NCBI RefSeq assembly: GCF_000284455.1
Contig: NC_017039.1
Span: 720,001 to 752,000 of the forward strand
Length of the DNA: 32,000 bases
Direction: 5' to 3'
From: Synechocystis sp. PCC 6803 substr. PCC-P
GTDB taxonomy: Bacteria; Cyanobacteriota; Cyanobacteriia; Cyanobacteriales; Microcystaceae
Shown: piece by piece, positions 13,526 to 31,138 of the stretch
How positions within the stretch are numbered: the stretch's first letter is position 1
How the letters are laid out: every line of letters starts with the position of its first letter
Translations under genes and position numbers: made by a program
The notes under the pieces: generated by a model
The model's database searches: none
What the model was told of the DNA's origin: nothing
The model's input: the letters and a program-made list of their open reading frames with translations, nothing else

Positions 13526-14533
13526 ATGGCGGATTGTTTTTTTGTCACTGGGGGCACGGGCTTTGTCGGGGCTAATTTGGTCCGCCATCTGTTGGAGCAG
13601 GGTTATCAGGTGCGGGCGTTGGTGCGGGCTTCCAGCCGTCCCGATAATTTGCAAAATTTACCCATAGATTGGGTCGTGGGAGATTTGAATGATGGGGATC
13701 TTCACCAACAAATGCAAGGCTGTCAGGGTCTCTTCCATGTGGCGGCCCACTATTCCCTTTGGCAAAAAGACCGGGAAGCTCTTTACCGCAGTAATGTTTT
13801 AGGCACGAGAAATATCCTGGCCTGTGCCCAAAAAGCAGGCATTGAACGCACTGTCTACACCAGTTCCGTGGCGGCGATCGGCGTTAAAGGGGACGGTCAA
13901 AGGGCGGACGAAAGTTATCAAAGTCCAGTGGAAAAGTTAATTGGAGCCTATAAACAGTCCAAATATTGGGCGGAACAGGAGGCATTGACAGCGGCCCAGC
14001 AAGGCCAAGACATTGTCATTGTTAATCCCAGCACTCCCATTGGCCCCTGGGATATTAAACCTACTCCCACGGGAGAAATAATTCTGCGCTTTCTGCGGCG
14101 ACAAATGCCAGCCTACGTTAACACTGGCTTGAATTTAATCGATGTGCGGGATGTGGCGGCGGGGCATCTCCTGGCTTGGCAACGGGGAAAAACTGCTCTG
14201 ACCAGAGGCGATCGCTATATTTTGGGCCATGAAAATATCAGTCTTCAAGGGATTTTGGCCCATCTATCTACCATTACGGGGTTACCCGCCCCGAAAAATA
14301 CGGTTCCCCTTTGGTTACCCTTGACCTTTGCCTGGGTGGAAGAAAAAGTTCTGGCTCCCCTGGGGCGATCGCCTTCGGTGCCCATGGATGGGGTTAAAAT
14401 GTCCGCCCAGGAGATGTATTACGATGCTAGTAAAGCGGTGCAGGAATTGGGGCTACCCCAGTCCTCTATCAAACAGGCTTTGGCAGATGCGGTGCATTGG
14501 TTCCAAAACCATGGCTACGTTAAGACCCAATAA
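13526..14533 (+). CDS. NAD-dependent epimerase/dehydratase family protein (dihydroflavonol-4-reductase-like / hopanoid-associated sugar epimerase-like)
   Basis: ORF 13502..14533. I prefer the ATG at 13526 (MADCFFVTGGTGFVGANLV Rossmann motif) over the GTG at 13502. YKQSK catalytic Y-x3-K is present. Confidence 0.85.
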   Translation: MADCFFVTGGTGFVGANLVRHLLEQGYQVRALVRASSRPDNLQNLPIDWVVGDLNDGDLHQQMQGCQGLFHVAAHYSLWQKDREALYRSNVLGTRNILACAQKAGIERTVYTSSVAAIGVKGDGQRADESYQSPVEKLIGAYKQSKYWAEQEALTAAQQGQDIVIVNPSTPIGPWDIKPTPTGEIILRFLRRQMPAYVNTGLNLIDVRDVAAGHLLAWQRGKTALTRGDRYILGHENISLQGILAHLSTITGLPAPKNTVPLWLPLTFAWVEEKVLAPLGRSPSVPMDGVKMSAQEMYYDASKAVQELGLPQSSIKQALADAVHWFQNHGYVKTQ

Positions 14534-14539
14534 TTCTAA

Positions 14540-14649
14540 GAACGTGTTTGGAAAGTTTTATTCTGCCCCCCAAATCCCCCAATACTGGGGGACTTTCACT
14601 CAGTTTCCCCCCAAATTTTGGGGGCCAGGGGGGCTTTTAAAACAGGCTC
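14540..14649 (+). mobile_element. MITE-like element, copy A (110 bp)
   Basis: TIRs are GAACGTGTTT (14540..14549) and AAACAGGCTC (14640..14649, rc GAGCCTGTTT). They are flanked by TAA at 14537..14539 and 14650..14652. The interior holds G/C hairpins: cccccaatactggggg, ccccccaaattttggggg, and an outer gcccccc/ggggggc clamp followed by tttt. Near-identical to copy C apart from a 14-nt indel. Confidence 0.8.
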
Positions 14650-14765
14650 TAAGTCCCTTGTCGTTGCACTGGAACGGAGAAGATTTTCCTGTAGTTCCAG
14701 ATGATGCGTCGCTATCATCCCATCTGAATTCAACCCATACTTGATTCCAATTTTTATCATTTTCC

Positions 14766-19782: not shown

Positions 19783-22032
19783 ATGGCTACCCGTTCCCGC
19801 AAAGCCCCTTCTGCCCCTAAAAAAAGTCAAACTAACCTTTCCCAGGGTGGCAACAGCCAAAAGGTAGCCCTCAAAAAAGGCTCCAGGGTGGCCAAAATTC
19901 GTCTGCAGGAATCGGGCAAAAATTCCCAATCCCGGCGGGTATTTCCCCTCCTTGGCGATCGTTATTTTCTCGGCCGCAGTTCCAGTTGTGATATTCAACT
20001 GCAAAATCCCCTCGTGAGTCAGACCCATTGTTCCCTGCGGCGGGACCCTGACCATCCTAACCAGTTTTTTATTCGAGATGAAGGCTCTAGCAACGGCATT
20101 TATCTGCAACGTCGCCGCCTAAAAAGCTATCGTCTGCAGCATGGTGATGAAATTACCCTGGGGCCACCGGAATTGGTGGATGTGCCCAAACTTGTTTATT
20201 TCAACCCGCCGCCATTGTGGTTAAAGGGAATGCGCACTTTTTTTTCCACTGGTATTCTGTTTTTTCTCATCATCACCGGGGCGATCGCCTGGCAATGGAG
20301 CAAAATTCCCGTTAAACCCATGCCCAGTGGCGTGACGGGGCCAGTTAAGGTTTATGCCGGGGACGGGGTGACGGAAATCAATCCGGTTAAGCAAGAAATT
20401 CACCGGGAATTTGATAATTTAAGTGATTTTTCGCCCTATTTACCCCAAGCGGTCATTGCTTCGGAAGATACTCGCTTTTACTGGCATTTTGGCGTTGATC
20501 CCTACGGTTTGGGCCGAGCGATTTACATTAACCTCCAGGACAGGGATGTGAAACAGGGAGCCAGCACCCTTACTCAACAGTTGGCCCGCAGTTTGTTCAG
20601 TGAAGTAGGGCGGGAAAATACGGCGGGGCGTAAAATTCGGGAAATGTTTGTCGCCCTCAAGTTGGAAGCGGTGTATAGCAAAGACGACATTTTAAAAGCC
20701 TATTTGAATCGAGTTTACCTAGGGGCTGGTAATTACGGCTTTGAAGATGCGGCCCAGTTTTATTTCGACAAATCTGCCCAGGATTTGGATGTGGGGGAAG
20801 CGGCCACCCTAGTGGCAATGTTGCCAGCTCCCAATCTTTACAACCCCGTGCAGGATTATCAAACCTCCGTACAATTGCGGAATCGGGTTATTGAGCGCAT
20901 GGCCATGTTGGGCATGATTGACGAACAGGAAGCCAACCGGGCTAGGCGATCGCGCATTCAGGTCAGTCCCAAGGCTACCCAAACCCTTTCCCAACGGCAG
21001 GCTCCCTACTTTTACGGTTACATTTTTGGCGAATTAAACCATTTACTAGGCGAAGATGTGGCCAAAGAAGGCAATTTTGTCGTGGAAACTAGCCTTAACT
21101 TAAAAATGCAGGCCCTAGCGGAAAAAAGCTTACAAAAATTCCTCACCACGGAGGGAAAAAAGTATGCGGTTTCCCAGGGGGCAGTGGTTACCCTGGACAG
21201 TCGTACCGGGGCAGTTTTGGCCATGGTGGGGGGCAAAAGTTACCGGGAAAGTCAATTTAATCGGGCGAGCCAAGCCCAACGGCAACCAGGCTCAACGTTC
21301 AAGCTTTTTGCCTACACAGCGGCGATCGCCAAGGGAGTGAGCACTAATCAGGCTTTTGAGTGTGGCCCTTTCACCTGGCAGGGTCAAAACTACAAGCCCT
21401 GTGAACGGAGCGGGGCAGCCCCGGCCATTACCTTTGCGGAAGGTTTTGCCCAATCGGAAAATGTGGTGGCCCTACGGGTGGCCCAAACGGTGGGCTTAGA
21501 CGAAATTATTGCCCTGGCTAAGGATTTTGGCGTTAACTCTTCCCTGGTGAAAGAACCAGGTTTGGTGCTGGGGCAGAGTGAAGCTAGGGTGCTGGAGATG
21601 ACCGGAGCCTACGGGGCGATCGCCAATGGAGGTGTTTGGAACCGGCCCCACGGCATTGTTAACATCCGGGATGGGGGGGATTGTCCCGATCCAGAGCAAC
21701 TAAAAAGCTGTCGGGAAGTTTATCAGGTCAGCCAGGATGGCCGGGGACAAAAACAGGTGGTTTCTCCGGCGATCGCCGCCACCATGACCCAACTTTTACA
21801 AGCCGCTGTGACCAATGGCACAGGCAAAGCTGCGGACATTGGCTACGGAACCGCGGGCAAAACCGGCACCACGGATAAAGCAGTGGATTTATGGTTTATT
21901 GGCTTTCTGCCCCAAAAAAATCTGGTCACCGGCATTTGGTTAGGCAATGACGACAGTAGTCCCACCCAAGGCAGTAGTGGTCTGGCCGCTACCCTTTGGG
22001 GTCAATATATGCGACAAATTGCTTCCTTGTAG
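19783..22032 (+). CDS. Class A penicillin-binding protein (GT51 transglycosylase + transpeptidase) with N-terminal cytoplasmic FHA domain
   Basis: 749 aa. FHA signature: LGRSSSCDIQL..VSQTHCSL..IRDEGSSNGIYL..GDEITLG. TM segment: FFSTGILFFLIITGAIAWQW. GT51 motifs: EDTRFYWHFG, GASTLTQQLAR, RKIREM. Transpeptidase motifs: STFK, SEN, KTGT. Confidence 0.9.
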   Translation: MATRSRKAPSAPKKSQTNLSQGGNSQKVALKKGSRVAKIRLQESGKNSQSRRVFPLLGDRYFLGRSSSCDIQLQNPLVSQTHCSLRRDPDHPNQFFIRDEGSSNGIYLQRRRLKSYRLQHGDEITLGPPELVDVPKLVYFNPPPLWLKGMRTFFSTGILFFLIITGAIAWQWSKIPVKPMPSGVTGPVKVYAGDGVTEINPVKQEIHREFDNLSDFSPYLPQAVIASEDTRFYWHFGVDPYGLGRAIYINLQDRDVKQGASTLTQQLARSLFSEVGRENTAGRKIREMFVALKLEAVYSKDDILKAYLNRVYLGAGNYGFEDAAQFYFDKSAQDLDVGEAATLVAMLPAPNLYNPVQDYQTSVQLRNRVIERMAMLGMIDEQEANRARRSRIQVSPKATQTLSQRQAPYFYGYIFGELNHLLGEDVAKEGNFVVETSLNLKMQALAEKSLQKFLTTEGKKYAVSQGAVVTLDSRTGAVLAMVGGKSYRESQFNRASQAQRQPGSTFKLFAYTAAIAKGVSTNQAFECGPFTWQGQNYKPCERSGAAPAITFAEGFAQSENVVALRVAQTVGLDEIIALAKDFGVNSSLVKEPGLVLGQSEARVLEMTGAYGAIANGGVWNRPHGIVNIRDGGDCPDPEQLKSCREVYQVSQDGRGQKQVVSPAIAATMTQLLQAAVTNGTGKAADIGYGTAGKTGTTDKAVDLWFIGFLPQKNLVTGIWLGNDDSSPTQGSSGLAATLWGQYMRQIASL

Positions 22033-22050
22033 TTAACTGGGTTGATCAAA

Positions 22051-22181
22051 AAGCTTGTTTAAAAAGTCATGGTCCGCCCCCTAAATCGACCCACTAAAGC
22101 TCCGGCTCTGGCAAGTTTGGGGGAATTTGAACACTGTTCCCCCCAGAGTTGGGGGGCTAGGGGGGCTTTTAAAACACGTTC
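22051..22181 (+). mobile_element. MITE-like element, copy B (131 bp, variant)
   Basis: Right TIR AAACACGTTC (22172..22181, rc GAACGTGTTT) followed by TAA at 22182..22184. Left TIR is degenerate, AAGCTTGTTT (22051..22060), preceded by AAA. It shares the core ccgccccctaaatcgacccactaaagctccgg and aggggggcttttaaaaca with copy C. The middle section differs (ccccccagagttgggggg hairpin). Confidence 0.7.
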
Positions 22182-22789
22182 TAAACCTTGGCCAGGATGA
22201 AAACATTGCCTTCATTACCACGGCTGATGCGTAAATCTTCGTCTAAATAGGTGATTTCTAGCCAAGCGGCATTGTCCCGACCGGGCAAATTAAAATCCGC
22301 TGGCAGAAAGCGTTTGCCCGTGGAAATTTGTTGGATGAATTTTAAAGGAGATTGATAATTGAGGATTTTTTGTAGGCCGAGAATGGAACGCTCAAATTTG
22401 ACTTCAATGCGTTTGTCGGAAACAGGGATAAAGGAAGCCACCACGGACACTAAACTTTCCAAGAAAGGGATGCCTTCAATTTCCGCCAAATTTACCACCC
22501 TTGACCCCGCCACGTCTATGTACTGATAAATTTGCCCTAATTGCAAAAGGGGAAGGCGATTCAAGCCCAAAATACTTTGGCTGCTGGTGTAGAGGAGTCG
22601 CCAATTACCATCCAGCAAATTTTTCTCCTGGAGTGGTTTGGGATGGGGATTATAGTCTTCCAATTTTTCCACCGCAGAAAGGATGGCCACCCGGTCCCGA
22701 TCTGATGCCAATAGCCCCCGGTTTTTGCCGGCGATCGCCTCTAGGAGATTGGTTTTAAAATCCATATTGGCATCCATACTATTGGGCAC
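22181..22789 (-). CDS. Fibrillin / plastid lipid-associated protein (PAP) family
   Basis: 202-aa ORF with a GTG start; alternative ATGs at 22777 and 22765. PAP_fibrillin-like pattern: KTNLLEAIAGKNRGLLASDRDRVAILSAVEKLE...GNWRLLYTSS. The stop TAG (22181..22183) spans the MITE junction. Confidence 0.8.
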   Translation of the reverse strand: MPNSMDANMDFKTNLLEAIAGKNRGLLASDRDRVAILSAVEKLEDYNPHPKPLQEKNLLDGNWRLLYTSSQSILGLNRLPLLQLGQIYQYIDVAGSRVVNLAEIEGIPFLESLVSVVASFIPVSDKRIEVKFERSILGLQKILNYQSPLKFIQQISTGKRFLPADFNLPGRDNAAWLEITYLDEDLRISRGNEGNVFILAKV

Positions 22790-22880
22790 GCTAAATCCGT
22801 TAAAAATTTTATTGGGTAGTTACACCAATTATCCCATGTTGGCCGGGACTGGCGATCGGGATTCCCAGAGCATAAAGAAC

Positions 22881-24734
22881 CTAGGCTGATTGCAACCAAT
22901 TGAGGGTTTCAGGAAAACGGGGAATGGACTGAATTAATTTTTTGGTGTAAGCGCTCTGGGGATTTTCGATAATTTCCTGGGCCGTATTGATGGGTTCCGC
23001 CAGTTGCCCCCGGTTCATCACCATAATGCGATCGCCCATGAAACGAACAACGCTCAAATCATGGGAAATAAAAATATAGGTCAGTTGTAAATCCCGTTGT
23101 AATTCCTTCAGCAGATTTAATACCTGGGCTTGCACCGACACATCCAGGGCAGAAACGGACTCGTCACAAATGATAAAACGGGGATTGAGCGCCAAGGCCC
23201 GAGCAATGCAAATCCGTTGCCGTTGGCCCCCAGACAATTCGTGGGGATAGCGGTTAAACCATTGGGGACTAATACCCACCCGTTCCAACAGTTCCGCCAC
23301 CCGTTGCCGTTGCTGCTTAGTGGATTGTTTAGGCTCGTGAATAATCAGTGGCTCTTGGATGGCCCGACCAATGGTCATGCGGGGATTAAGGGAATTGTAG
23401 GGATTTTGGAAAATAATTTGCATTTCCCGCCGTAAACGTCGCCATTGTTGGGATTTTTCCGGTAAAGCAGCCACATTTTGTCCATCAAAGATAATTCGAC
23501 CCGTTTGAATGGGAGTTAAGCGCAATAAAGCCCGAGCTAAGGTGGATTTACCGCAACCGGATTCCCCCACTAACCCCAGGGTTTCCCCCGGATAAACCTG
23601 GAAGGAAACATCATTAACTGCTTTGAAAACGGATTTTTTCCCAAATAGTCCCCCCTGCCCGTAACTAACGGTTAGGTTTTGCACTTCCAGCAGAGGGGGT
23701 TTGGCTTGCAATTGAGCCAGGCGATCGCTTTCCTGGGCCGGAGTAATAACTTGATAACTGGGAGGCGGACCATCAGCATTGAGAAAATCCCCCACCGTGG
23801 GCAAATGGTCTAACTGTATTTCCAAGCGAGGACGACAGGCCAATAAACCTTTGGTGTAGGGATGTTGAGGACTATGCAAAATCTGTTCCTTTAGCCCCTG
23901 CTCAACAATTTCCCCCCGGTACATCACCGCCACCCGGTCCGCAATTTCGTTAATCACCCCCAAATCATGGGAAATAAAAATTAGGGACATTTCCTGATGT
24001 TGTTTGCACAAATCCCGCAGGAGCCGCAAAATTTCCGCCTGCACTGTCACATCCAAAGCAGTGGTTGGTTCATCGGCAATGAGTAGTCGGGGATTGGCGG
24101 AAATGGCCATGGCAATCATCACCCGTTGCAGTTGGCCGCCGGATAGTTCATGGGGATAACGTTTGAGAAAACTTTGTTTCCGCTGTTGGATATAACTAGC
24201 TAAATTTTGGGTTACTTTGCCCCTAGGCTGGGCCTGTTCTTGGGCTAAAAATTCTTCTTCCAGCACTTCATCTTTGGGCAATACCCTCACTTCCTGCAAA
24301 AGGGCGATCGCCTGGTTTTGAGCTTCTTCCTGGGTAACGTTTTGGTGGAGGCGAATTGCTTCAATAATTTGAAAGCCAATGGTATAAACCGGATTAAGGG
24401 AACTCATTGGCTCCTGGAAAATCATGGCAATTTTGCCGCCCCGGTACTGACGCTTGTCCCCCTCTGGCAGAGCAACTAGGTTGACAGGGGAACTCTGGGC
24501 CTGGGCAAAAAAATCAATTTCACTGCTAGGTTCCACCCAGCCTGGCTTGGGCACCAACCCCATAATGCCCAGGGAAGTGACGGATTTACCGGAACCAGAT
24601 TCCCCCACAATGCCGAGGATTTCCCCCCGCTCTAACTCAAAATCAACCCCTTTGACGGCCAACAATTTTTCCCTGGTATCAGCATCGGGGAAAGCAATTT
24701 CCAGTTGACGCACAGCCAAAATCAGGTCATTCAT
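22881..24734 (-). CDS. ABC transporter ATP-binding protein with two fused ATPase domains (Dpp/Opp D-F type)
   Basis: ORF 22881..24833 has a GTG start. I prefer the ATG at 24734 (MNDLILAVRQLEIAF). Two Walker A motifs (GESGSGKS, GESGCGKS), two LSGGQ signatures and two Walker B motifs. No permease or binding-protein gene is adjacent. Confidence 0.85.
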   Translation of the reverse strand: MNDLILAVRQLEIAFPDADTREKLLAVKGVDFELERGEILGIVGESGSGKSVTSLGIMGLVPKPGWVEPSSEIDFFAQAQSSPVNLVALPEGDKRQYRGGKIAMIFQEPMSSLNPVYTIGFQIIEAIRLHQNVTQEEAQNQAIALLQEVRVLPKDEVLEEEFLAQEQAQPRGKVTQNLASYIQQRKQSFLKRYPHELSGGQLQRVMIAMAISANPRLLIADEPTTALDVTVQAEILRLLRDLCKQHQEMSLIFISHDLGVINEIADRVAVMYRGEIVEQGLKEQILHSPQHPYTKGLLACRPRLEIQLDHLPTVGDFLNADGPPPSYQVITPAQESDRLAQLQAKPPLLEVQNLTVSYGQGGLFGKKSVFKAVNDVSFQVYPGETLGLVGESGCGKSTLARALLRLTPIQTGRIIFDGQNVAALPEKSQQWRRLRREMQIIFQNPYNSLNPRMTIGRAIQEPLIIHEPKQSTKQQRQRVAELLERVGISPQWFNRYPHELSGGQRQRICIARALALNPRFIICDESVSALDVSVQAQVLNLLKELQRDLQLTYIFISHDLSVVRFMGDRIMVMNRGQLAEPINTAQEIIENPQSAYTKKLIQSIPRFPETLNWLQSA

Positions 24735-24910
24735 AGATGTTTGGAGACGGGGAAAGTCGCTAACGGCAGGTGGTGACAGTTCTTTTGCAGGGACATCATC
24801 AAAACAGACAAAATGTGTCCTAAGATTCGCCACTCAAACTCTAGCAAACAGAGCCGCAAAAACCACGGTAGCGTCAATTTCCCCTTACCTCCATCGACAT
24901 ACCTTAACCT

Positions 24911-25387
24911 TTAATCGGACTCCACCGGGACAAAATCCAAATGGTTAAATAGGGTGGTGACAAAGCTAAACAGTAAAAATGGCAACGAAAGCACCAAGAC
25001 CAGACCCACTGTGGCTAGGGCATAGACCGGCCGGGTACTACTGGCCAGGGCCAAGGCGGATGCGAGGGAAAGGAAAATTACAATTAGCCAGACAATGATT
25101 TGGCCATAAATATCCCCAAAGGATAGGGTACAGACCATGCGATATTTGGGTAAGTCTCTTTCCATCATTGAAAAATCCTCTGTTGTGTATGGGGAAACGT
25201 CAACCCCTGCCAGGGCTAATAACATTGACCAATGGTCAAAGCGGCAATTGGCCAAAATTCTAAAGGATATTTCCGTTAATGATGTTAAGTTTTGAGACAG
25301 GGTTAATTGGGGATTAAATTTTGTCCCTGCCCCAAAGCCCAAAACCATTGTTGTTATTATGCTGGGAGTCCATGCGGCGATCGCCAA
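24911..25387 (-). CDS. Hypothetical membrane protein
   Basis: 158-aa ORF with an apparent TTG start; start uncertain, internal ATG at 25348. Two clear C-terminal TM spans (IIVWLIVIFLSLASALALA, ALATVGLVLVLSLPFLLFSFV). Confidence 0.5.
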   Translation of the reverse strand: MAIAAWTPSIITTMVLGFGAGTKFNPQLTLSQNLTSLTEISFRILANCRFDHWSMLLALAGVDVSPYTTEDFSMMERDLPKYRMVCTLSFGDIYGQIIVWLIVIFLSLASALALASSTRPVYALATVGLVLVLSLPFLLFSFVTTLFNHLDFVPVESD

Positions 25388-25439
25388 AGGTTTGTCCTAG
25401 AGTTCTTGAATCTTAAAAATTTCTCCATTCTCCATTTCC

Positions 25440-26225
25440 ATGAAACGACGAAAATTTATTCGTACCGCTGGAGCCGGGTTGCTGGCCGTTGCTGGAGTCC
25501 AAATTGGCGATCGACTCAGACCAGCCACCGCCCAAGCTAGCTCTGGTTTACAGGTGGAGTGGTTGGGCCATAGCGCTTTCCTCTTTTCGGCTAACGGTTT
25601 CCGGATCTTGGCTAATCCTTTCCGGGCCATCGGTTGCACTAAGGGATTTCGTTTGCCCAAGGTGCAGGCAGATTTAGTCCTCATTAGCTCCCAACTGTGG
25701 GATGAAGGGGCAGCGGAGAATTTACCGGGAAACCCGAGAATTTTGTTTGAACCGGGCAGTTACGACATTGGCGGCATCCAATTCCAGGGCATCAGTGCGC
25801 CCCACGATCGCCTGGGAGGAAGAAGATTTGGCCAAAATGTGGTCTGGCGTTGGAGTCAGGGAGGAATTCGGATAGTACATATGGGGGGAGCCGCTTCTCC
25901 CATCACCGAAGAACAAAAAATCCTTTTGGGCAGCCCCGACCTAGCCCTAATTCCCGTGGGGGGCGGGCCCAAAAATTACGACGCCGCCGAAGCCAAGGCC
26001 GCCATGGCCATACTCAATCCCCGCATGGTAGTGCCCACCCAATACGCCACCCCCGCCGCTGACCGGGGCAACTGTGACCTCCAGACCCTGCAACCGTTTT
26101 TGGATTTGGTGGAAGGCATGAATGTCCAACGCATCAATGGCAATAGCCTTTCCCTCCGGGCCAATAATCTCCCGGCGGAAGGGACCCTAATCCGCATCTT
26201 CAGTGAACAAGGATTGTTGGTTTAG
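25440..26225 (+). CDS. Tat-exported MBL-fold (Lactamase_B_3 / UlaG-like) hydrolase-family protein
   Basis: 261 aa. Twin-arginine signal MKRRKFIRTAGAGLLAVAGV...ATAQA. The VEWLGHSAFLFSANGFRILANPF start is typical of this MBL-fold subgroup. Confidence 0.7.
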   Translation: MKRRKFIRTAGAGLLAVAGVQIGDRLRPATAQASSGLQVEWLGHSAFLFSANGFRILANPFRAIGCTKGFRLPKVQADLVLISSQLWDEGAAENLPGNPRILFEPGSYDIGGIQFQGISAPHDRLGGRRFGQNVVWRWSQGGIRIVHMGGAASPITEEQKILLGSPDLALIPVGGGPKNYDAAEAKAAMAILNPRMVVPTQYATPAADRGNCDLQTLQPFLDLVEGMNVQRINGNSLSLRANNLPAEGTLIRIFSEQGLLV

Positions 26226-26280
26226 GGAGCTTTGGTAAACCTTCAAAGAAGGAGCTCGGACTTTTTAGCAGACTTTCTAA

Positions 26281-26404
26281 GAGCCTGTTTTAAAAGCCCC
26301 CCTGACCCCCCAAATTTTGGGGGAAACTGAGTGAAAGTCCCCCATATTGCCGGAGCTTTAGTGGGTCGATTTAGGGGGCGGAATAAAACTTTCCAAACAC
26401 GTTC
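26281..26404 (-). mobile_element. MITE-like element, copy C (124 bp, inverted relative to copy A)
   Basis: Plus-strand GAGCCTGTTT (26281..26290) and AAACACGTTC (26395..26404). They are flanked by TAA at 26278..26280 and 26405..26407. The reverse complement aligns base-for-base with copy A except for a 14-nt extra segment and a few substitutions. Confidence 0.8.
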
Positions 26405-27120
26405 TAAAGGGAACTTTGGGCCGCTTTTCGTTGCTCCGCTAGATAAGTAAATACGGACTTATCGCCAATATCTGGGTCAAGGGGTTGCATTACCTTTCTG
26501 GCCACAAAGATGAGAAATAGAACGCTGGCTGAGACCAGTCCCCCTTTGGCCACGGTCAACGGCAATATTCCGGCCAAATGTCCCAACAGTAACAACGGAA
26601 TAATGGCGGTTAGAAATTTAGTTTCCAAACGATTAAAACAAAATGCTTCCTTGAAGAAAATTCCCGTCAGGGCGGCAAAAGTAAAGCCGATCCCAAGAAT
26701 GGTCCAGGGTTGATCATAGACTGTAGTCACTAGAATCCCTGGGTAGGCAAAACTGAAATAGAGGGCCGCCGTGGTACCGATCGCCCAAAAAATTTGCAAA
26801 GTGCGGTGGAGCACCGCTAGGTAAATGTGAATGGTCCAGAGACTCAACCCCAAACCCCCGGTCATCAGCCAAAAACAAGCCGTGGCTAGGTGAAAGTTAA
26901 CTGCCAAAGGCTGAAAAGGTTGGGCTAAAGCTAGGGCCACCCCCAAACTAAATCCCCCGGCCGCCAAAGCTAGCCCCGTGCGGTAGAGAATTACTTCCCG
27001 GCGATCGTGGTCATTGACGGTGAAGGGGCCAAATTGCCCTTGGTAGGTGGGGTTAACAGAGGTACTTTCTCGCATAATCGTTGCTCCAGAATCAGCACAG
27101 TTCAGACCATTTTCAGCCAT
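26404..27120 (-). CDS. Conserved cyanobacterial multi-pass membrane protein (DUF2301-like, tentative)
   Basis: 238 aa with ATG start. About six hydrophobic spans follow a soluble N-terminus (PTYQGQFGPFTVNDHDRREVILYRTG). The stop TAG (26404..26406) spans the MITE junction. Confidence 0.7.
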   Translation of the reverse strand: MAENGLNCADSGATIMRESTSVNPTYQGQFGPFTVNDHDRREVILYRTGLALAAGGFSLGVALALAQPFQPLAVNFHLATACFWLMTGGLGLSLWTIHIYLAVLHRTLQIFWAIGTTAALYFSFAYPGILVTTVYDQPWTILGIGFTFAALTGIFFKEAFCFNRLETKFLTAIIPLLLLGHLAGILPLTVAKGGLVSASVLFLIFVARKVMQPLDPDIGDKSVFTYLAEQRKAAQSSL

Positions 27121-27334
27121 GGATAACCATTAATCCTAATTATCCCAGGCCTCCCCCTCCATCAGGGGATTTTATGGCGATCGCCATTGCTATTGGTACC
27201 AAAACAAGGATAGAATCTATGCAATCTAAAACTTAAATTACATAACTAAAGGTAAATGATTGCCAAACTATTATTCGGGCCTGATTGGTCTGGGTTTGTG
27301 CTGGTCTAAACGAATAAATAAGGAGGAGCGGGCC

Positions 27335-27679
27335 ATGGTCGCCCTAGAGGCTTGTATTTTTGTGACTGTGATCATCGGCTTTTTAGGTCTGATTTATAAA
27401 TCTAATGTGTTTATGAAAATCATTGCCATGGACGTGATGGGCACTGGAGTCATTGCCTACTATTGCCTGATCGCTTCCCGCACTGGCTTTCTTACTCCTA
27501 TTGTCACTAGCCAGGAATCCACCATTCCCTATGCCGATCCCGTTCCCCAAGCAGTTATCCTCACAGCCATTGTGATTGGTCTATCGATTCAGGCGTTGAT
27601 GTTGGTGGCCACCATGAAACTGGCCCGGGAAAATCCCACCCTAGAAGTAAAGGCGATTGAAAAACAGTACTGGCCATGA
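27335..27679 (+). CDS. mrpC: Mrp antiporter subunit C (NuoK/4L-like), copy 1
   Basis: ORF 27260..27679. I prefer the ATG at 27335, preceded by AGGAGG at 27321..27326. Three TM spans and a C-terminal KLARENPTLEV pattern. The stop overlaps the next start (ATGA at 27676). Confidence 0.85.
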   Translation: MVALEACIFVTVIIGFLGLIYKSNVFMKIIAMDVMGTGVIAYYCLIASRTGFLTPIVTSQESTIPYADPVPQAVILTAIVIGLSIQALMLVATMKLARENPTLEVKAIEKQYWP

Positions 27680-29139
27680 CCCTATTTGCAGTTTCAGCGG
27701 AATTTAATGCGGCGCCCTGGGCCACGGTGGTCATTTGCTTGGCTTTGATGGCGGGCTTCACTGGCTATTTATTGCCTGCCACCATTCGTTTTTTGACTTT
27801 GGCCGTCTGTTTTGGCACTGGATTTTTAGCCTATTTGGGATTTTCTTTGCCGGAAGCCCAGTCTTGGTATTTGTTAGACAGTTTTGGCGTTGTTTTTCAA
27901 CTGGATGCCCTATCGGGTTATTTCCTCTTGACCAATGCCCTGGTGACTTTGGCGGTGTTGGTCTATTGCTGGAATACCGGCCGCTCAGCCTTTTTTTATG
28001 CCCAACTGATCATTCTCCACGCTAGCCTTAATTCCGCTTTTCTTTGTGCGGATTTTATGAGTCTTTATGTGGCCCTGGAAGTGGTGGCGATCGCCGCTTT
28101 TTGCCTGATGACCTATCCTAGGGAACCCCGAATTATTTGGCTGGGACTGCGCTATCTACTGCTGAGCAACACTGCCATGTTGTTTTATTTAATCGGGGTA
28201 GCACTGGTTTATAAAACTAATCAATCCTTTGCTTTTAGCGGTTTAACCCAAGCTCCCCCAGAGGCGATCGCCCTGATATTTTTGGGATTGTTGACCAAAG
28301 GGGGCATTTTTTTGGCGGGACTGTGGTTGCCCCAAACCCATGGGGAAGCGGCCACACCAGTTTCGGCCATGCTATCAGGGGCAGTGGTTAAAGCAGGAGC
28401 TTTGCCCCTATTGCGCTGTGCTTTATTGTCCGATCAACTACTATTATTAGTACAAATTTTGGGGGTAGCCACGGCGTTATTTGGAGTGGTCTATGCCATG
28501 CTGGCCAAGGACAGTAAGCGAATGTTAGCATTTCACACCGTTTCCCAAATGGGCTTTGTGTTGGCGGCCCCCATTGCTGGCGGTTTTTATGCTCTCAGCC
28601 ACGGTTTAGTGAAATCTAGCCTCTTCCTGTTGGCGGGGAATTTGCCCAGTCGGGACTTCAAAGTTCTGAAGAAAACTCCCATTGCCGCTGGTTTTTGGGT
28701 TCCCCTGCTTCTGGCCAGTTCTTCCATTGCCGGTTTTCCCCTACTGGCGGGCTTTGAAGCGAAAACCCTGACCCTCAAAGGATTGCCCCCCTGGTTGGCG
28801 ATCGCCTTAAACATTGCCGCGGTGGGTACAGCCATTTCCTTTTCCAAATTCGTTTTCCTGAAACCAACCTTTGTCGGTAAAACCTATCCCCTGGGCTTAG
28901 GCCTAGCGTTGGTGGTGTTACTCGGCGGTTTGGCCGTGGGTAATGTGGTTTACTGGCAAGCCTTTACCCCCAGTAATTTAATCAAAGCTACCCTGACCTG
29001 CGTGGTGGGGGCAGGACTATATTGGGTCGTGGTCAAAAGGCTAACCCTAAAACTGCCCGATGAAGGAGAACAGGTTGACCATCTGCTCGGCATGATGAGC
29101 ATCAGTTTAACCATTCTCTTTGCCTGGATTTTAGTATGA
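27676..29139 (+). CDS. mrpD: Mrp antiporter subunit D (NuoN/ND2-like), copy 1; legacy name ndhD5 from memory
   Basis: 487 aa, polytopic. Antiporter-like family residues: TM5 Glu (YVALEVV), TM7 Lys (LLTKGG), WLPQTHGEAATPVSAMLSGAVVKAG. Confidence 0.85.
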   Translation: MTLFAVSAEFNAAPWATVVICLALMAGFTGYLLPATIRFLTLAVCFGTGFLAYLGFSLPEAQSWYLLDSFGVVFQLDALSGYFLLTNALVTLAVLVYCWNTGRSAFFYAQLIILHASLNSAFLCADFMSLYVALEVVAIAAFCLMTYPREPRIIWLGLRYLLLSNTAMLFYLIGVALVYKTNQSFAFSGLTQAPPEAIALIFLGLLTKGGIFLAGLWLPQTHGEAATPVSAMLSGAVVKAGALPLLRCALLSDQLLLLVQILGVATALFGVVYAMLAKDSKRMLAFHTVSQMGFVLAAPIAGGFYALSHGLVKSSLFLLAGNLPSRDFKVLKKTPIAAGFWVPLLLASSSIAGFPLLAGFEAKTLTLKGLPPWLAIALNIAAVGTAISFSKFVFLKPTFVGKTYPLGLGLALVVLLGGLAVGNVVYWQAFTPSNLIKATLTCVVGAGLYWVVVKRLTLKLPDEGEQVDHLLGMMSISLTILFAWILV

Positions 29140-29650: not shown

Positions 29651-31138
29651 ATGAATTTTCCCACGGCGATCGCCCCTAACAATTTATTAATTGCCATCGT
29701 CGCCCTCCTGGTCTTGGCACTGATGGGAGCCTTTGGGGGCTATCTGTTTCGTCCCCTGGTGCGGCCCTCGGCCCTACTGATGACCCTGGGCACCATTCTC
29801 TTGGCAGCGGTGGGTTTTGCCCTCCCCAATGCCCAGCAATGGCAGTTAATGGATAGGTTTGGCATTCTCTTGCAGTTGGACAATTTAGGGAGTTACTTTC
29901 TGCTTACCAATGGTTTAGTTACCCTAGCGGTGTTACTTTACTGTTGGGCTTCCCCAAGGACAACCTTTTTTTATGTCCAATTAATGGTACTCCACGTTAG
30001 TCTCAATGCTGCTTTTTTATCTACGGATTTAATCAGTTTATACGTCTGTTTAGAGGTGGTGGGTTTATCTTCCTTTTTATTAATTATTTACCCCCGCCAG
30101 GCCGCCAGCAGTTGGATTGGGTTGCGTTATTTGTTTGTTACCAACACGGCCTTGTTGTTTTATTTAATCGGGGTGATGTTGGTTTATCAGGCCACTAACT
30201 CCCTGGATTTCCAAGGTTTAGCCACTGCCCCCTACGAGGCGATCGCCCTTATTTTTTTAGGACTGTTAATTAAGGGGGAAATTTTTCTTTCTGGGTTATG
30301 GTCACCCCAAACCAGTAGCATTGCCAGTGCTCCTGTGGCGGCCCTGTTGTCGGGCATTGTGGTTAAAGCGGGAATTTTACCCCTGTTGCGCTTTGCTTCC
30401 CTGTCGGAAAGATTGGCCATGATGGTGTGGGGTCTGGCCATTGCCACCGCTCTGTTGGGCATGGGCTTGGGCATGTTTGCCAGGGATAGTCGGCGCATTT
30501 TGGCCTACAGCACCATTTCCCAAATGGGTTTTATTTTGGTAGCCCCGGCGGTGGGGGGATTGTATGCGTTGACCCATGGCTTAGCTAAGGCTTGCCTATT
30601 TTTGTTGGTGGGCAGTCTGCCGGAACGAGATTTGGATAAACTCCAGGCCCAACCTATTTCCTACAAATTATGGTTGCCCATGGTATTGGCCAGTTCCTCT
30701 ATCATTGGCTTACCCATCCTGGCGGGCTTTGAAGCTAAAACCCTGACCCTGGAGACCCTCAGCCTCAATGAACTGCCCTGGACGGGAATTTTAATGAACT
30801 TGGCGGGGGTGGGCACAGCAATTATTTTGGCCAAATTTATTTTCCTCATCCCTAGCTTTGACAAGAATGTTGACCTGGACAAATCCCCCTGGGGCCTGTT
30901 TTTAGCGGTGCTTCTTCTGCTGGGGGCTTTAACCTTGGGCAATGTCATTTATCCCGAAGCTTTTTCCATGGAGAACGGCATCAAAGCCACCGCTAGTTTT
31001 CTGCTGGGTTCAGCCATTTACTGGTGGGGTTTGCGGAAAATTCCTTGGCAACCACCTGATTGGGGGGAACGCTTGGATCATCTGATCGGCACCATGGCCA
31101 TAATGTTGATGTTACTTTTCAGCTCGGTATTAATATGA
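29651..31138 (+). CDS. mrpD: Mrp antiporter subunit D, copy 2; legacy name ndhD6 from memory
   Basis: 495 aa. Collinear with copy 1 with no indel over the first 230 residues or so. 44 of 70 positions were identical in a stretch I aligned by hand. It keeps the TM5 Glu and the TM7/TM8 Lys residues. Confidence 0.85.
   Translation: MNFPTAIAPNNLLIAIVALLVLALMGAFGGYLFRPLVRPSALLMTLGTILLAAVGFALPNAQQWQLMDRFGILLQLDNLGSYFLLTNGLVTLAVLLYCWASPRTTFFYVQLMVLHVSLNAAFLSTDLISLYVCLEVVGLSSFLLIIYPRQAASSWIGLRYLFVTNTALLFYLIGVMLVYQATNSLDFQGLATAPYEAIALIFLGLLIKGEIFLSGLWSPQTSSIASAPVAALLSGIVVKAGILPLLRFASLSERLAMMVWGLAIATALLGMGLGMFARDSRRILAYSTISQMGFILVAPAVGGLYALTHGLAKACLFLLVGSLPERDLDKLQAQPISYKLWLPMVLASSSIIGLPILAGFEAKTLTLETLSLNELPWTGILMNLAGVGTAIILAKFIFLIPSFDKNVDLDKSPWGLFLAVLLLLGALTLGNVIYPEAFSMENGIKATASFLLGSAIYWWGLRKIPWQPPDWGERLDHLIGTMAIMLMLLFSSVLI

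Follow-up and report, generated by a model that had tools for sequence, protein, structure and literature searches.

Three related repeats, A, B and C, in the window (the whole stretch of 32,000 nucleotides of Synechocystis sp. PCC 6803 that was analysed) are very probably non-coding MITEs that carry 16-nt terminal inverted repeats (TIRs) near-identical to the ends of an 871-bp IS of the IS5 family, and that borrow the transposase of this IS. The repeats are short and non-coding, have inverted ends and a flanking TNA duplication, occur as dispersed copies, are missing from empty sites in relatives and have their ends in common with an autonomous IS, all of which speaks in favour of the non-autonomous transposons that a sequence-only reading of the window had proposed.

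All three elements were found where that reading had placed them: A at 14540..14649 on the plus strand (110 bp), B at 22051..22181 on the plus strand (131 bp) and C at 26281..26404 on the minus strand (124 bp), hence inverted relative to A. Congruent with the claim that A and the reverse complement of C agree except for a 14-nt indel, 104 of 109 aligned bases are the same (95.4%), and the indel of 14-15 nt (ACTAAAGCTCCGGC) is carried by C, the long form, while A represents the short form without this 14-nt module. Identity of B to A and C amounts to 79-84%. The middle of B had been described as a different module, and the family as modular, a view that we abandon as most of this middle agrees in sequence, save for small indels and substitutions; as judged from this alignment, B is a decayed older copy and not a differently built one.

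A and C begin with GAACGTGTTT... and end with ...AAACAGGCTC. The inverted ends had been given as 10 bp long; they are indeed inverted, but the repeat measures 16 nt (GAACGTGTTTGGAAAG versus GAGCCTGTTTTAAAAG), with 12 of 16 positions matching within one element for each of A, B and C and with GARCNTGTTTNNAAAG as the consensus of the family. In A, the left TIR occupies 14540..14555 on the plus strand (GAACGTGTTTGGAAAG) and the right TIR 14634..14649 on the minus strand (GAGCCTGTTTTAAAAG when read on that strand). TAA is present on both sides of A (14537..14539 and 14650..14652) and on both plus-strand sides of C (26278..26280 and 26405..26407), as had been noticed before, and B has the two unequal ends ascribed to it, i.e. 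an intact right end with TAA at 22182-22184, and a decayed left end (AAGCTTGTTT) with AAA at 22048-22050. Two occurrences of the 24-nt left end were counted in the window versus 0 expected (100 shuffles), and a 17-nt core near the right end, GGGGGGCTTTTAAAACA, is found three times without mismatch. The window is moreover abundant in GCGATCGC repeats.

The elements have no coding capacity: all three are far shorter than the ~600 bp taken as the limit, the indels among the copies would disrupt any reading frame, and the sole ORF across A (window 14328-14744, plus strand) is a mechanical, out-of-frame read-through. Such mechanical ORFs, of 66-138 aa, run through other MITE copies as well (L098 and L026) and could pass for small genes with gene callers. 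Elsewhere in the window, two paralogous genes with the Pfam domain Proton_antipo_M (27676-29139 and 29651-31138) are ~70-78% identical in DNA over several stretches, each being preceded by a small gene with an Oxidored_q2 domain.

Empty sites in relatives and the fold of the repeat

Mobility predicts relatives in which the element is missing and a single trinucleotide is retained, and such sites, suggested earlier as a check, were recovered for both A and C. Window 21599-29132 has a collinear counterpart in an 8-kb block of S. salina LEGE 00031 (L039), and the alignment of the two skips from window position 26280 to 26404, so that S. salina reads GCAGATTTCC-TAA-AGGGAAC where PCC 6803 reads GCAGACTTTC-TAA-[C]-TAA-AGGGAAC. 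For the A site, the upstream epimerase gene served as query in a protein search, which led to orthologues with 93-95% identity and from these to the respective contigs. A is missing from three relatives, S. salina LEGE 06155 and two Synechocystis-like assemblies, the latter two carrying AATAAGTCCAAGTCCC at the position of AATAATTCTAA-[A]-TAAGTCCC in PCC 6803. Using the same upstream gene as query in metagenomes gave no empty A site, the relatives recovered there having at most 81% protein identity and no conserved downstream synteny.

Considering that A and C are absent from S. salina, they were inserted after the PCC 6803 lineage split from S. salina. B, on the other hand, is shared with S. 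salina LEGE 00031, where it occupies the corresponding site with 93% identity, and has one end decayed, pointing to an insertion older than this split. In the two Synechocystis-like assemblies, the B site (L210 13241-13357 and L211 12568-12684, equivalent to window 22033-22184) is taken by another filler of ~97 bp that is rich in G/C runs and ends at the same TAAACC junction; BLAST of this filler against all copies returned only matches of 12-24 nt at chance level.

We also considered that the repeat may be a conserved structural or regulatory element residing immobile at fixed sites, in the form of REP-like DNA or of a structured RNA (a terminator or stabiliser, for example). A folds into nested G/C-rich hairpins of -45 to -48 kcal/mol (z-scores of -2.5 and -3.6), all three elements are located at gene 3' ends, and the identity of B between PCC 6803 and S. 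salina LEGE 00031 exceeds that of the flanking coding DNA (84-89%), with two other intergenic stretches at 66-80%. Constraint, gene conversion between the copies or mere chance may each account for this high conservation of B. The stems are kept in a consensus fold of 18 diverse copies with almost no covariation (a term of -0.67 kcal/mol), which is uninformative here since the stems consist of invariant C and G runs. Rfam covariance models at gathering score gave 0 matches in the whole window, and scans for terminator and promoter consensus sequences around A found nothing. Thus, the structure alone gives no evidence of a cellular function. As a substitute for mobility, the structural explanation is refuted by the precise empty sites of A and C, by TNA duplications that match at dozens of unrelated sites and by ends held in common with a transposase-encoding IS, and we regard it as highly improbable.

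Further copies and the target-site duplication

The MITE family extends well beyond the window. BLAST against plasmids returned full-length copies on pSYSA and pSYSM of PCC 6803, both flanked TTA/TTA. One scan of species-representative genomes with the pattern AGGGGGGCTTTTMAAACA gave 116 loci, none of them from PCC 6803 in spite of the three exact matches to this pattern in the window, and ~30 of them chance matches in unrelated bacteria; the remaining loci are cyanobacterial, with ~60 in the MAG 'Synechococcaceae RL_1_2' and ~35 in the uncultured cyanobacterium MAG MFD09964 (both counted from the hit list), six in Synechocystis salina LEGE 00031, and others in Snowella, a Xenococcaceae MAG and an unclassified MAG. 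The repeat is thus dispersed and multicopy, with three copies in the window, two on PCC 6803 plasmids and dozens in each of two MAGs. Copies fall into length classes of 109-110, 124 and 129-131 bp, and the short and long forms, as defined by the module separating A from C, are both present in PCC 6803, S. salina and MFD09964.

Several copies deserve mention in their own right. The pSYSA copy (L001 3003-3112) lies upstream, at a distance of ~100 bp, of a gene whose annotation is that of a CRISPR-associated protein of the TIGR03985 family. Plasmid pSYLC of PCC 6714 has a short relative of the family between kdpB and kdpA (L003 ~1994-2066), ~70 bp in size, with a single hairpin and diverged ends (AAGGATGTCTGAAAAG ... 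CTTCTGAAACTCCTC). In the RL_1_2 MAG, a composite of MITE pieces is found (L118 5666-6005), where a complete copy adjoins the internal TAAATCC of a second, partial copy; this second copy is in turn split at CTAGG by ~125 bp of a further repeat, which is also present in L005.

To the search for further copies with the same ends and flanks, which had been put forward along with the initial observation, other cyanobacterial genomes and the Synechocystis plasmids contributed 88 two-ended candidates, the ends of which were placed by script; 76 copies were kept for flank statistics following removal of doubtful cases. Identical 3-bp flanks are seen in 56 of these 76, as compared with 23.5 ± 3.6 (maximum 40 in 10,000 trials) when right flanks were shuffled among copies. 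The matching flanks are all T-N-A, i.e. TTA/TTA (27 copies), TAA/TAA (21), TCA/TCA (6) and TGA/TGA (2). Where TNA is present on both sides, the middle base is the same in 56 of 61 copies, demonstrating a true target-site duplication. Roughly a quarter of the copies do not have matching flanks, which is compatible with decay. The target is wider than the TAA deduced from the window, approximately C-TNA-G, with C at -1 in 62% and G at +1 in 66% of copies; the 3-bp length of the proposed duplication is maintained.

Synechocystis has IS630-family elements such as ISY100, which duplicate TA, and the MITEs could in principle derive from a Tc1/IS630-type transposon of this kind, the third base being duplicated in appearance only. 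TTA and TAA both contain TA, and IS630-family elements are named in the titles of PCC 6803 resequencing papers. Eight copies are however flanked by TCA/TCA or TGA/TGA, without TA, which excludes a duplication of the IS630 type. Moreover, a TA duplication would put the two ends out of register by one base and does not account for the shared middle base, and the ends match those of an IS5-family element at 14 of 16 positions. With a duplication of 3 bp that includes TCA and TGA, we consider an IS630/Tc1-mariner origin barely credible. Finally, a longer inverted repeat, TWAGARC...GYTCTWA, with the flanks as its outermost bases and no target duplication, is conceivable for a single copy because TTA and TAA are mutual reverse complements (giving a 19-nt repeat), but it predicts opposite TTA/TAA pairs, of which the flank table holds only three against 48 pairs with the same trinucleotide (TTA or TAA) on either side, and as the empty sites retain exactly one trinucleotide it is refuted, leaving next to no room for this reading.

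A probable partner of the IS5 family

Regarding the origin of the transposase, a full-length IS with the same TIRs, the existence of which would strengthen the transposon interpretation, was indeed identified. On pSYSM (L120 38789-39659), an 871-bp element surrounds an annotated IS5-family transposase, has the ends GAGCGTGTTTGAAAAG / GAAAGTGTTTGAAAAG and is flanked TTA/TTA; we take it to be the IS5S of Cassier-Chauvat et al. 1997. The same IS occurs in PCC 6714, in Synechocystis sp. B12 and on the PCC 6803 chromosome, the chromosomal copy (CP129343.1, L217 ~660-1530, flanks TAA/TAA) encoding an intact DDE transposase of 261 aa (L217 727-1512). CP129343.1, a PCC 6803-type chromosome of 3.57 Mb, contains the window sequence identically, so that the MITEs and the intact IS belong to the same assembly. 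The pSYSM copy (L120 38853-39644) has an in-frame TAG where relatives have Trp (DSQ*QLVEP), and the copy on pSYLA of PCC 6714 (L122 371-1155) is frameshifted. Based on these lesions, the pSYSM and PCC 6714 copies are probably inactive, unlike the chromosomal copy of PCC 6803. Plasmids of Synechocystis sp. B12 hold intact copies, also of 261 aa, and TTA/TTA is seen at four of the five sites of the B12 and PCC 6714 set; across the Synechocystis sites, five of six are flanked TTA/TTA or TAA/TAA.

Two IS copies stand head to tail with one trinucleotide (TTA or TAA) between them on a B12 plasmid (L123 1-1180) and again in PCC 6803 (L217 660-2410, ~2.2225 Mb). The second of the tandem copies in PCC 6803 is a 74%-identical variant, in which an internal deletion removes the RWVVERTF region of the transposase.

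Comparison of the ends gives 14 of 16 matches between MITE and IS, with the left TIR of A matching either IS end to this extent and the right TIR matching the IS left end GAGCGTGTTTGAAAAG. Over 24 nt, the left end of A agrees with the right end of the IS at 20 positions, and the likeness stops after 16-24 nt. Only these terminal nucleotides are common to both, and the MITE is not a simple deletion derivative of the IS. The two have in addition the 3-bp TNA duplication and the host genomes in common, and differ in that the MITE is gene-less, 110-131 bp long and filled with G/C-run hairpins unrelated to the IS interior. In two related IS clades from other cyanobacteria (~72% protein identity), the ends are conserved and TNA duplications were seen at six out of seven different sites; the IS measure 871, 865 and 891 bp in length.

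The sequence-only reading had pointed to IS5 subgroups with T-N-A duplications, and this proved right. The transposase matches the NCBIfam profile NF033580 (transpos_IS5_3) with 201.5 bits (cut-off 110), as well as Pfam DUF4096 and DDE_Tnp_1. Elements of the IS1031 type are ~850-950 bp in size in ISfinder terms and carry inverted repeats of ~16-17 nt starting with GA(A/G)C; the Synechocystis IS has both this size and such repeats. Within the IS5 family, it is likewise the IS1031 subgroup that is distinguished by making 3-bp TNA duplications exclusively (PMC12016507, PMC1676026). Judged by sequence features, the partner IS fits this subgroup. One member, ISLrh, is 857 bp long with the inverted repeat GAACCTGTCTAGTATCT and a TNA target (PMC12016507; PMC1676026); ISLrh and the Synechocystis IS agree in length class, in duplicating TNA exclusively (3 bp) and in their GAAC/GAGC...TGT ends, whereas ISLrh has two ORFs with a -1 frameshift and the Synechocystis IS a single 261-aa ORF.

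Partner elements were also sought close to the MITEs of other genomes. A tblastn search with the transposase against all loci of the analysis returned the Synechocystis IS copies only, and a partner IS was not found in the 8-kb MITE blocks of the two most MITE-rich MAGs. Cases in which the end motif recurs in inverted orientation within 0.4-3 kb near MITEs were assessed as further candidates and rejected: all seven are two MITEs bracketing ordinary genes, among them a transporter, ribosomal proteins L21/L27 and a hypothetical gene.

From the common ends and the common duplication, we infer that this transposase mobilises the MITE. The 261-aa DDE protein would bind the 16-nt MITE ends in trans, excise or copy the element and insert it at T-N-A, with C-TNA-G preferred. 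Staggered cuts, presumably 3 nt apart, would then be repaired into the 3-bp direct duplication.

Gene ends and known systems

The target preference has a consequence for genes that end at the insertion site. Since G is the first base of the element and C the last, CTNAG is restored on either side when the element enters a CTNAG site, and a gene whose TAG or TAA stop is hit thus remains intact. Two such cases are present in the window. The TAG stop of a 202-aa gene (22181..22183, minus strand), the homologue of which in L210/L211 carries a Pfam PAP_fibrillin domain, is composed of the terminal base of B and the TA of its flank. Analogously, the TAG stop of a DUF2301 gene (26404..26406, minus strand) is formed by the terminal G of C and the TA of the duplication, and at the empty C site in S. 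salina the same stop of the DUF2301 gene is native. Among the 76 copies, ten adjoin the stop codon of an ORF with a length of 80 codons or more, versus 1.3% of unoccupied CTNAG sites. This excess is descriptive, and selection against insertions inside genes would produce the same bias. A more speculative proposal, to which we assign a rather low probability, is that the family is a near-neutral 'stop-codon hitch-hiker' at gene ends, and that some of its old copies, B for instance, have been adopted as hairpin terminators or as stabilisers of RNA where genes converge. It is also a possibility that the family is still active in PCC 6803, given the intact transposase in this strain and the 95% identity of A and C.

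The MITE family represents a clean but ordinary case that leaves the understanding of MITEs and IS5-family elements unchanged. Its value is rather for Synechocystis sp. PCC 6803, a main model cyanobacterium, substrains of which are known to diverge via IS movement. With defined ends, the C-TNA-G target and a partner transposase, annotators can mask these repeats, and the family accounts for odd intergenic hairpins and spurious ORFs. The target furthermore predicts possible new insertion places, stop codons included, and A and C can serve as presence/absence markers that set PCC 6803 apart from S. salina and further relatives.

A description of a Synechocystis MITE family with these ends was not found in the accessible literature. 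Lin et al. reportedly surveyed MITEs in 17 cyanobacterial genomes with MUST in 2011, and the family may already be catalogued there. Among eukaryotes, the Tourist-like MITEs of plants are mobilised by PIF/Harbinger elements, the transposases of which are distantly related to IS5. They resemble the present family in their 3-bp TWA/TNA duplication and differ by their eukaryotic hosts, by unrelated ends and by the need for a second, Myb-like protein. Closer to hand, MITEs are well known in cyanobacteria (PMC2779907, PMC3184786, PMC10969869). Nezha of Anabaena/Nostoc and MaeMITEa-h of Microcystis are, like A, B and C, short, non-coding, multicopy and strongly folding, and they too have IS-like inverted ends, direct duplications and empty sites in sister species, whereas their sequence, partner IS and host are different (PMC3184786, PMC2779907).
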